In this document: positions 50,566 through 52,397 of the stretch, one piece after another
Position numbering within the stretch: position 1 is the stretch's first letter
Layout of the letters: each line of letters begins with the position of its first letter
NCBI GenBank assembly: GCA_044229975.1
Contig: JBGARZ010000008.1
Span: 288,001 to 352,000, forward strand
DNA from: Polyangiales bacterium
GTDB taxonomy: Bacteria > Myxococcota_A > Polyangia > Polyangiales > Ga0077539
Length of the DNA stretch: 64,000 bases
Direction: 5' to 3'
Translations under genes and position numbers: made by a program
Notes under the pieces: generated by a model
Databases searched by the model: none
Seen by the model: the letters and a program-made list of their open reading frames with translations, nothing else
What the model was told of the DNA's origin: nothing

Positions 50566-50739
50566 AGGGCGGCGAAGGGAACACAGACCGTCGACGCGCA
50601 TCAAGATCGCGGAGCCCATCGGCGCGGCCACGTCCGACCCGCCGTCGGCTTGACGGGCATCGCGCCCGAGGGAGAGCCTCGTTCGATGCCGTACCGCGAG
50701 CCATCGCTGAAGGCCCCCGCCCGAGGCACCGCGGCGGGT

Positions 50740-51250
50740 CGGTGTCTGGGTCGTCGCAGCCTCGCTGGCCCTGGGGTGCGGCGCTGGTCACCGCGCGGGT
50801 CTCTGGTCGCGCGCCCGCGGTCGTGGTCGTCCCGCCCGCGACGCCCCCCACGGAGCCCGTCATTGCGTGGGGCACCCAGCTCCGGATCGCGGACCGCCCC
50901 GCCGACGGCAGTCAGCAGATCGTCGCCGGGTCCATGCGTTTCACTGCGACTTCGGCGGGCCGCATCGAGGTGGCGCCGATGCGCTTCGAGGCGGACATCG
51001 CCGGCGCGACCCGGTCAACGACGGCTGGGTGTTCGTGACCATCGCGGGTGATGTCGCATGCAGCGATACCCTCCTCGGTCCGCTCCGCGCGCTCGGTCGA
51101 GTCCACGATCTCATCGACTTCGCGCGGCGTGACGGCGACCACGACGGGCGGACGCCTGTTGCTGGAAGCCGATGGGGTCCTTCGCCATCGACCGGACGCG
51201 CGGCGTTCCGATGCGCGCTGGGAGGTCGACCGTGCCGTCAGGATGAGAGG
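50740..51250 (+). pseudogene. Decayed lipoprotein gene with multiple frameshifts
   Basis: WVVAASLALGC lipobox in one frame; protein-like segments (IAWGTQLRIADR.., VNDGWVFVTIAG.., RLLLEADG..) continue in other frames; bounds approximate. Confidence 0.4.
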
Positions 51251-51462
51251 CAGACCCGGCGCGGGCGCCAATCGACAACTTCACCAGATATCCCTTGCGC
51301 GCTTCGGGTATTCGGGTATCTTGCCGGTCCCTTCGACCTGCGAGTTGCGCCATGCCCTGCTTCAACACACCGCTCTGACGACACGCCACCGACGATGCGC
51401 CATCCGCGCATCTCGGATGAGATCGCGTGCCGACGCGGGGGCGGTACAGGGTTGACCTACTT

Positions 51463-51491
51463 CGTAACTATAACGGGCCTAAGGTAGCGAA
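51463..51491 (+). other. Isolated 23S rRNA helix-69 region / I-CeuI recognition-site-like sequence
   Basis: CGTAACTATAACGGGCCTAAGGTAGCGAA matches the conserved bacterial LSU CGTAACTATAACGGTCCTAAGGTAGCGAA at 28/29 nt; flanks are not rRNA. Confidence 0.85.
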
Positions 51492-51755
51492 CTCGGGTGA
51501 CCGAGCTAGTCAGCGCCGGGCGCATCCCGCTTGCGGGCGTGTGCCCTGGTCTGCGCGTGTTGCAGCGCGCAGATCGCAGCGCGTGTCGACGGCCCGACGG
51601 TGTCTCGTACACCCGTCGGGCACGGACGCCGTGCGCCGTCGTCCTCCGCGAGGAGGGCTCATGGCCACACTGGTCAATCCGCCTCTTCCCCTCCGTGTCG
51701 GCCAGGGCGACGTTGCTTTGTCTTCAATCAAGTCGCCAATGGTCGCATTCGGGAC

Positions 51756-52397
51756 CTACGCCGCAGTATCAACGCGGCGCGCGTCATCGAGGTCGAAGCG
51801 CTGCGTAAACACCGTCGCGAAGCTGAACGCCGCCACCTGCCAGAACCACACGCTCGTGAACACGAAGCCGATACCCCCGGCGAGCAGGCCCACGAACGAC
51901 AGCGCCATCGCGGGCAGCACGATGCTCCACGCCTTCCAGTAGGCGACGCCCCCTTCGCCCACCCGCCGCAGCGCCCGGAGCGGATCGAAGATCTCGCGCG
52001 GGTCGAGCTCCTTGCAGTAATGGGACATGTACCCGGGGATCGCGATCACCGCGAGCAGCCACAACAAAGCCCCGACCACCACCAGTGGGGTCACGCGAAA
52101 CCACAGCCCGAGGGCGGCGAGCGTCACGCCCGGCCACCCGTACCAGACCATTCCCAGGAAGGTCATCGCGCCGTGCTTCAGGAGATCCTTCGGGTCGTCC
52201 CACGCAGGCCACGGCGTCTCCCCCCGGTGCATGCGATGAACGACCCGTATCCGATGGCCCATGTTCATCAGCCAGCCGACCACGGGTACGAGGAGCCACA
52301 GACCCCCGATGACGATGTCACGACGCGAGGCTTCGGACTGAAGCGGGAAGCGGAATGAGTTGCCCAGGGTGAGCCTGTCACGCAGGTCGATGGTCAT
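51756..52397 (-). CDS. DUF4013-like membrane protein
   Basis: SFRFP..IGGLWLLVPVVGW..G..PWPAWDD..LLKHG; 4 TM segments. Confidence 0.75.
   Translation of the reverse strand: MTIDLRDRLTLGNSFRFPLQSEASRRDIVIGGLWLLVPVVGWLMNMGHRIRVVHRMHRGETPWPAWDDPKDLLKHGAMTFLGMVWYGWPGVTLAALGLWFRVTPLVVVGALLWLLAVIAIPGYMSHYCKELDPREIFDPLRALRRVGEGGVAYWKAWSIVLPAMALSFVGLLAGGIGFVFTSVWFWQVAAFSFATVFTQRFDLDDARRVDTAA

Follow-up and report, generated by a model that had tools for sequence, protein, structure and literature searches.

The locus

The RNA described here lies in an intergenic region of the window (the whole stretch of 64,000 nucleotides that was analysed), with a gene remnant on one side and a convergent DUF4013 gene on the other. 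The remnant (50660–51240) is frameshifted; its longer homologue lies on contig C13 (~108250–110080), to which three blocks are ~71% identical at the DNA level. At the end of the DUF4013 gene (51756–52397) there is one copy of a short REP-like repeat (51749–51783), which is clustered elsewhere in the genome. The following features are recognized:

51295–51322, + strand: candidate sigma-70-type promoter, weak (TTGCGC, 16 nt, TATCTT); loose pattern
51329–51428, + strand: probable 5′ leader, containing a hairpin and an 8-codon ORF (51352–51378); fold, RNA contig starting at 51375
51429–51702, + strand: whole RNA, Y-RNA-type terminal module with a circularly permuted mimic of 23S domain IV; terminal duplex, helices, RNA contigs
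51429–51457, + strand: 5′ strand of the terminal stem–bulge–stem; pairs with 51672–51702
51441–51449, + strand: bulge GCGGTACAG, predicted Ro60 site, variant of the GNCGAANG motif; module comparison
51457–51462, + strand: YUAY linker CTACTT, a YrlA hallmark; position after the inner stem
51463–51478, + strand: apical stem–loop of H69 (1909–1921) and 3′ strand of the H69 base (1922–1924); pairing and covariation
51479–51489, + strand: equivalent of 1925–1935, CUAAG loop and 5′ strand of H70; covariation
51492–51505, + strand: H71-like hairpin with GNRA loop, CTCGG-GTGA-CCGAG; covariation
51509–51512, + strand: 3′ strand of H70 (1964–1969 equivalent); covariation and fold
51513–51584, + strand: helix occupying the H67 position, with two variable hairpins closing it; fold, with H67 as its probable identity
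51585–51627, + strand: mimic of the H68 base (3 bp, 2-nt bulge, 2 bp, bulged A, G·U/G–C pair, variable hairpin); 53 unique and 73 metagenome copies
51628–51630, + strand: 5′ strand of the H69 base (1906–1908 equivalent, GCC); pairs with 51476–51478
51672–51702, + strand: 3′ strand of the terminal stem–bulge–stem; pairs with 51429–51457

Positions 51463–51491 are identical at 28 of 29 nucleotides to positions 1909–1937 of 23S rRNA (E. coli numbering), and the sole difference is a G for U at 51477, the equivalent of 1923. The numbering is that of an earlier sequence-only reading and agrees with the residue numbers of PMC6438126. The reference 29-mer is the commonest form among 21 true 23S loci; the organism's own 23S was not found in the assembly, and the 23S of relatives was used for comparison in its place. 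By arithmetic, chance would give a 29-mer match with no more than one mismatch ~1e-11 times per 64 kb, and in the 10-Mb assembly 51463–51491 is the sole match when up to six mismatches are allowed. An Rfam scan of the 64-kb window gave no rRNA and one tRNA only. Thus, the sequence-only reading was right in pointing out the match to this part of the large subunit rRNA and the absence of an rRNA gene around it. Its identification of the stretch as the I-CeuI homing site is correct in so far as the sequence is that piece of 23S, but this is incidental, the 29-mer being unchanged in just 15 of 100 copies of the family described below. Local folds of the flagged 56–146 nt show no extra stability against shuffled sequences (z +1.47 to −1.33); the structure is visible only over the whole 274-nt RNA and through covariation.

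A widespread but patchy RNA family

The ~274-nt RNA is a member of a family with ~100 non-rRNA copies among the matches listed, from at least seven phyla (Myxococcota, Bacteroidota, Cyanobacteria, Armatimonadota, Chloroflexota, Actinomycetota and Verrucomicrobiota among these matches). A scan of species genomes with a pattern excluding the usual rRNA form yielded at least 119 stretches and one viral stretch, and 99 of the 120 matches listed are non-rRNA, i.e., neither flank matches 400 nt of 23S by BLAST. The copy nearest to that of the window among the matches listed is L135, from a Polyangiales record. After removal of duplicates and of three short or N-containing rows the working set comprised 100 copies. 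The first search patterns fixed positions 1909–1921, and therefore the invariance of these positions in those copies is built in. A second scan, of metagenomes, was anchored on H70–H71 and gave at least 120 matches, 110 of those listed being unique.

The sequence-only reading had proposed to look for further non-rRNA copies with conserved flanks, and these are indeed present in related genomes: the core is found outside rRNA in 5 of the 30 other genomes of the same family, with conserved flanks, and in 24 of 401 genomes of the same order. Model R1 found only the centre genome among 151 genomes of a Bacteroidota family, and two mimics and two rRNA stretches among 151 genomes of the own phylum; these sparse finds in both sets indicate a patchy distribution, with stricter filters missing weak copies. 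A plasmid search with a cyanobacterial copy gave no match. In annotated phage records there were 20 matches, all to the 29-mer only and several annotated as 23S, and four patterns gave 0, 1, 1, and 4 matches in IMG/VR, so that the family is not mainly viral. The RNA family is real and widespread but patchy.

A circularly permuted mimic of 23S domain IV

The H69–H70–H71 part was aligned for 68 of the 100 copies, by our choice those with a hairpin of ordinary length. In this alignment 95.3% of the cells are paired and the covariation amounts to 0.423, compared with 0.159 after shuffling and at most 0.106 in slid controls. The partners of 1933 and 1934 lie on the strand that follows the H71-like hairpin; 91% of the cells are paired here, and two of three pairs show two-sided changes. 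The likeness of CTCGG-GTGA-CCGAG to the H71 hairpin, already seen in the sequence alone, is well founded: two-sided changes occur at all five pairs, and a GNRA loop caps the hairpin in 80 of 100 copies compared with 1–7 of 100 at four control positions. The commonest pairs are those of 23S 1946–1949/1957–1960, and the B3 receptor pairs C1947–G1959 (68/80) and G1948–C1958 (58/80) are the commonest at their places and the best-kept identities of the hairpin. For the next helix the register is partly resolved (three pairs in 21 of 62 copies, two pairs in 35 of 62), and H67 is probably part of the mimic.

H68-like blocks could be located in 64 of the 100 copies (53 unique), where they pair with the topology of the H68 base and a CA/CG bulge, and these pairs covary again in 73 unique metagenome copies among the matches listed. 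A matrix derived from the mimics alone has its best score at 23S 1826–1843 in 10 of 11 rRNAs, which are not independent of each other; column-shuffled matrices reach this score anywhere in 4.9% and in domain IV in 0.85%. The three bases after the 3′ strand of H68 pair with 1922–1924: 1907–1923 is formed in 63 of 63 copies (five pair types; 40 in the shuffle), 1908–1922 in 62 and 1906–1924 in 63, after exclusion of the row L076, which is mis-registered. In the metagenome set, with the bases of the H69 base kept out of the search matrix, the same three pairs are formed in 26, 25, and 25 of 26 copies, respectively.

In the window, G51628–C51629–C51630 pair with C51478–G51477–G51476. As C51629 pairs with G51477, the U1923G exchange is a compensated change. 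The sequence-only reading had paired this G with a U at 1907 just upstream, taking TTCGT as the 5′ arm of H69. This pairing does not hold over the family, since the upstream 1907 pairs with 1923 in 17 of 100 copies and 1906 with 1924 in none (the search pattern excluded G at 1907 and left 1906 free). What was taken for this arm is instead, at 51457–51462, the YUAY linker, and the true partner of 1923 is C51629.

The cargo is a circular permutation of H68–H69–H70–H71. The chain starts at 1909 and runs through the tip of H69, H70, H71, the helix in the place of H67, and H68 to its end at 1908, and the Ro60-type stem is inserted in H69. Compared with domain IV (H67–H71, RF02541) the mimic shares the nearly identical 1909–1937 segment, the bulge topology of the H68 base, the H70 pairs, the H71 stem, and a 6-bp H69 stem. 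Unlike domain IV, it is an independent short gene permuted at H69, the distal H68 and the 1938–1944 segment are missing, the A1848 region is a variable hairpin, the H71 loop is cut to GNRA, and many pairs are flipped or exchanged. A fragment of an rrn operon was considered and rejected, as BLAST matches neither flank to 400 nt of 23S and the order of the helices is permuted.

The family comprises two forms. In form 1, to which the window copy belongs, the Ro60-type stem lies between 1908 and 1909; in form 2 the break is in the H69 loop near 1915. Of the 110 unique metagenome matches listed, 37 have the apical H69 hairpin on the 5′ side, in 58 it is changed or absent, seven are others, and eight are put down to chance by a crude rule. 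In many copies of form 2 the 3′ end supplies more of H69, and 1909–1921 pairs in 33 of 43.

Some further sequence likenesses were followed up and dropped. A pairing of the YUAY linker with 1930–1933 was rejected, as it is the strand behind the H71 hairpin that changes in step with 1933. Resemblances of the 3′ block to 23S 2582–2594 and of other blocks to H61, H64, and H65 are short and non-significant, and the H68 pairing explains the block. The stand-alone family copies L181 and L182 drift in the H69 loop (G at 1915; C–G for 1911–1919 with a shorter loop), the C–G of L182 being compensatory for U1911–A1919, and the window copy drifts in H70.

The terminal module

The terminal duplex of the window copy has a free energy of −40.7 kcal/mol (z −3.9). 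In the 61 copies subjected to stem tests, the inner stem is present in 56 (control 34), the outer stem in 31 (control 7), and both stems in 31 (control 3). A simple duplex test over all 100 copies is weaker, 71 copies beating the upstream control at a median z of −1.1. A G-rich motif precedes the core by 21–25 nt. GNCGAAN(0-1)G has been published as the Ro60 motif and YUAY as a motif of YrlA (PMC4201824). The former (GNCGAANG) occurs exactly in 10 of 100 copies (control 0/100) and in a relaxed form in 78 of 100 (control 8/100); YUAY is located after the inner stem in 58 of 100 copies compared with 9 and 10 of 100 in two control windows.

The bulge of the window copy, GGUACAG, departs from GNCGAANG and is common to the small RNAs beside the organism's own Ro60 gene. 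The module variant of the window (GCGGTACAG ... TACTTC) is also carried by two small RNAs that lie directly upstream of the Ro60 gene on contig C2, and it is seen again beside 4 of 10 orthologous C2-type Ro60 loci examined; the pattern alone is weak, with four matches in the genome and two in the reversed genome. In each lineage the sibling small RNAs carry the same module variant as the mimic, and in many of them it is combined with a T arm followed by a D arm. With the Rfam model of YrlA two siblings in L094 pass the cut-off (72.3 and 71.1 bits) and ten more in six loci score below it, whereas the mimic RNA itself has no Rfam match, including none to tRNA or YrlA. No other rRNA mimic is found on 96 sibling Y modules, where the longest likenesses are 13–19 nt.

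Tandem arrays of several Y-module RNAs per locus occur in Bacteroidota (L125, L102, L113, L122, L091, L100, L169) and in a cyanobacterium (L129). The RNAs of such an array share one terminal module, many have the T arm before the D arm, and most stay below the Rfam cut-off for YrlA; these arrays are an unannotated expansion of Y RNAs. In the genome of the window, small Y-module RNAs flank both Ro60 genes (G000:C2:10462-10640 and ~12385; G000:C4:~125870-126110), none of the small RNAs in these C2 and C4 stretches reaching an Rfam E of 0.1, and a lone YrlA-like RNA lies at G000:C21:32618.

Neighbouring genes

The gene neighbourhood was derived from 69 long loci (at least 2 kb) among the matches listed and from 44 metagenome long loci, likewise among the matches listed. 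The commonest neighbour is a TROVE/Ro60 gene on the same strand, which lies within 5 kb of the mimic in 44 of the 69 loci; no adjacent Ro60 gene is present in the other 25. All six neighbouring Ro60 proteins that were tested match TROVE (PF05731). In the metagenomes TROVE is found in 23 of the 44 loci, 29 of 29 TROVE matches are on the same strand, and both forms of the RNA lie beside TROVE (6/12 and 17/29 long loci).

The copy in the window is a solitary one; the two Ro60 genes of the genome are on other contigs. Co-occurrence links the RNA to Ro60: TROVE is present in 20 of 24 RNA-positive genomes of the order sample versus 78 of 377 others, and within the own family the mimic is found in 8 of 11 genomes with a C2-type Ro60 (the subtype of the gene on contig C2, at least 55% identity) versus 0 of 20 others, counts which come from kin that are not independent, so that their significance is overstated. 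Two of these eight copies were found by the covariance model only, as predicted from the Ro60 subtype; the three genomes with a C2-type Ro60 and no mimic are 64, 77, and 93% complete.

tRNA genes lie less than 1.5 kb from the mimic in 36 of the 69 long loci, and the neighbouring tRNAs are co-oriented with it in 406 of 406 cases (277 of 278 in the metagenome set). All 406 tRNAs share the strand on which the mimic has the rRNA sequence, and the RNA therefore mimics rRNA in the sense orientation. The second commonest neighbour is an HNH gene (15 of 69 long loci); long tRNA arrays, which translational stress induces, are marked by HNH genes (PMC8421152). The neighbour scan, covering 63 proteins in one set and 127 of 139 selected same-strand ORFs in another, also revealed RtcB, three ATP-dependent RNA ligases, EF-Tu, EF-Ts, L7/L12, TrhO, and DusB. 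RtcB is encoded in 30 of 31 family genomes and does not discriminate; PrfH is above the cut-off in none of the 31.

The modules L097, L084, L075, L055, L104, L089, and L169 carry extra genes for EF-Tu, EF-Ts, L7/L12, an aminoglycoside acetyltransferase, TrhO, DusB, and ARPP-domain proteins. These genes point to a translation-stress island.

Transcription

The sequence-only reading had also suggested a search for transcripts. In the metatranscriptome run X1, from another study, one contig covers 51375–51695 and both junctions of the 29-mer without substitution (at least 99% identity), and in run X3 of a second study a contig covers 51503–51682. Neither run has contigs on the flanks of the RNA or at the Ro60 locus, and a 20-kb control of the same genome gives only chance pieces of 18–31 nt. 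The mimic RNA is thus present as a discrete piece in two metatranscriptomes, the contigs giving neither strand, exact ends, nor level. One DNA run contains a diverged relative over 51426–51744.

Elements resembling the candidate promoter precede 9 of 16 stand-alone copies examined, a count without a chance control, and a stricter promoter scan did not report the 51295–51322 element. The leader ORF ends Leu-stop and has a counterpart among the close copies in L029 only. Short Leu-stop ORFs with strong ribosome-binding sites are also seen upstream of L042, L070, and L094; a Leu-stop leader peptide as a general feature was rejected, as it occurs in only 11 of 100 copies.

At position 51524 the contigs of X1, X3, and X4 contain one extra T, which may be a one-base error of the window or a strain allele. 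One X1 contig joins the 3′ to the 5′ end (51695 to 51375); this may be a circle or a product of the library, and circular forms are not described in the available part of PMC7790460.

Relation to known RNAs

The closest relative among known RNAs is YrlA (RF02553; PMC4201824). Both have the terminal stem–bulge–stem, a G-rich motif in the 5′ bulge, YUAY after the inner stem, a Ro60/TROVE gene on the same strand, and, on the Ro60 stem, a circularly permuted mimic of a translation RNA, which is tRNA in YrlA; in addition, YrlA-type RNAs are direct neighbours of the mimic. Unlike YrlA, the RNA carries 23S domain IV (H68–H71) as cargo, is 170–300 nt long instead of ~110, lacks T and D arms as well as a match to RF02553, and in the window copy has a lineage variant of the motif. 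The mimic thus resembles the broad Y RNA class in sequence and context and is not a member of the YrlA subfamily, as it has no tRNA domain. According to the same source few YrlA RNAs are found in cyanobacteria and delta-proteobacteria.

A Ro60-binding stem joined to an exchangeable effector domain that tethers a partner is also the plan of Yrn1 from D. radiodurans, YrlB, and Yrl1/Yrl2 of Thermus phage, none of which, unlike the mimic, is described as rRNA-like in the available parts of PMC4201824 and PMC12135203. With GOLLD, one of the large tRNA-array RNAs, the mimic shares the position of a structured RNA inside tRNA arrays. Ribosomal-protein leaders mimic an rRNA site. These leaders act in cis on an mRNA, whereas the mimic is a stand-alone gene without a fixed downstream ORF, and it has no Rfam match to either kind of RNA. 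The I-CeuI and group I intron homing sites in 23S have the 29-mer in common with the mimic, which is without intron or endonuclease and changes at this site in accordance with RNA pairing.

We found no Rfam family for the RNA, and a full-text search, which covered few subscription papers, gave no published rRNA-mimicking Y RNA; the supplementary YrlA tables of PMC4201824 could include some of the loci. We found no description of a Y RNA with an rRNA domain as cargo, the known mimicry of Y RNAs being that of tRNA.

Possible function

The RNA is a free-standing, transcribed gene and neither an artefact nor a scar, and we are highly confident that it is a Y RNA that mimics rRNA. A mimic of rRNA was among the explanations offered by the sequence-only reading, which missed its extent (274 nt including H68 and H70), the circular permutation, and the link to Y RNAs and Ro60. 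By analogy, the RNA is likely bound by the Ro60 protein of the genome and would have a role in the repair or turnover of RNA under translation stress. Tethering of Ro60 to effectors is a known function of Y RNAs, and operons of Ro60, Y RNA, and RtcB answer RNA damage (PMC4201824; PMC7790460; PMC12135203).

We tentatively favour docking on the 30S interface, by which Ro60 and RNA ligases would be positioned, because the helices kept in the mimic are bridge helices, the B3 pairs are the best kept, and the stem leaves from H69. The central RNA–RNA bridges are formed by H69 (B2a), H68 (B2b), H67 (B2c), and H71 (B3, with the receptor pairs C1947–G1959 and G1948–C1958; PMC6438126). The Y-type stem would carry Ro60 while the mimic of H68–H71 might dock on the face of the 30S subunit, which could allow Ro60 and RNA ligase or nuclease partners to reach damaged ribosomes. 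In the ribosome H69 faces the decoding centre, and the stem inserted in H69 would place Ro60 beside this centre in the 70S ribosome. Ribotoxins cut 16S rRNA at the decoding centre and RtcB2 repairs free 30S subunits (PMC9304027). Against docking on the 30S subunit stand the H69 loop, which is central to bridge B2a and which, in the scan that left it free, is open or altered in the majority of copies, the incomplete conservation of the bridge residues (C1836 is kept in 61%, C1833 in 33%), the near-universal RtcB, and the lack of a PrfH above the cut-off in all 31 family genomes.

A more far-reaching version is speculative, and we regard it as possible rather than probable: in many phyla the RNA might be a 'mini-50S interface' which docks on free or damaged 30S subunits via bridges B2 and B3 and brings Ro60 and an RNA ligase to the decoding centre, and it might be one cassette of Y RNA arrays whose tRNA-like or rRNA-like cargo addresses each class of substrate.

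The mimic gives a testable answer to the role of Ro60 in Myxococcota, Bacteroidota, and cyanobacteria and would link Ro60 physically to ribosome quality control. It also provides a natural, evolution-tested minimal fold of the H68–H71 junction, the core of the subunit interface at which antibiotics and factors bind, and shows that domains of rRNA can undergo permutation and be used again as modules.

As the main rival explanation, the same Y RNA could instead serve as a decoy or bait, unlikely as this appears to us, in which case proteins that act on 23S domain IV (modification, recycling, splitting, hibernation, and assembly factors or ribonuclease toxins) would be sequestered or recruited to Ro60. 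Conservation of the fold instead of a strict bridge sequence and the missing 1938–1944 segment fit this explanation. The H69 loop is the target of RluD, RlmH, and RRF. It is just this loop that is opened in the second form of the RNA, and no such enzyme recurs among the scanned neighbours (127 and 63 proteins). The tRNA-like domain of YrlA is a substrate of tRNA enzymes, so that a mimic can act via protein recognition (PMC4201824).

Quite doubtful is a function on the 50S side, where the mimic would patch or displace disordered H68–H71 on damaged or immature subunits and thereby lead to repair or decay, or would hold tRNAs for repair. The tRNA contacts in 23S are at 1922–1923, in the distal H68, and at 1939–1944, and these are positions that vary or are missing in the mimics. 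The GNRA loop of the H71-like hairpin (80/100) is a docking motif, however, the copies within 1.5 kb of tRNAs (36/69) place the RNA in tRNA arrays, and in D. radiodurans Ro60 has a part in the maturation of 23S (PMC4201824).

It is improbable that a structured RNA derived from rRNA merely shares operons with Ro60 and is not its ligand. In most copies the motif is off the published consensus, the Rfam model of YrlA does not match the RNA itself, and 25 of 69 long loci have no adjacent Ro60; on the other hand, the terminal module changes lineage by lineage in step with the YrlA-type siblings, and the stand-alone copies track one Ro60 subtype (8/11 versus 0/20).

A scar of homing, retrotransposition, or integration, the former two among the proposals of the sequence-only reading, is very improbable, as is an antisense RNA against 23S. 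The I-CeuI/H69 site is a hotspot of introns and endonucleases, and HNH genes are present in 15 of 69 loci. Yet the covariation refutes a scar: independent genomes carry diverged, covarying copies, in which the variable positions of the 29-mer covary with bases 150 nt downstream, i.e., by compensatory change and not by decay. Recurrent integrases or LAGLIDADG clusters are absent from the neighbours, as are endonuclease and integrase genes from the flanks in the window, and HNH genes accompany long tRNA arrays generally (PMC8421152). The orientation, always sense with tRNAs and Ro60, contradicts an antisense RNA.

The I-CeuI site occurs in cloning vectors and the assembly lacks its own 23S, but the assembly, vector, or adapter artefact considered by the sequence-only reading has a negligible probability, since many independent genomes hold diverged copies with conserved flanks and the RNA contig of another study crosses both junctions at 99% identity or more without substitution.

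As a minor observation, a stretch of ~31 nt from 23S, its H69 stem intact, lies in non-rRNA sequence without a Y module at L191 (G016:C23:103375-103433); this may be an intron junction or an orphan H69 of another kind.
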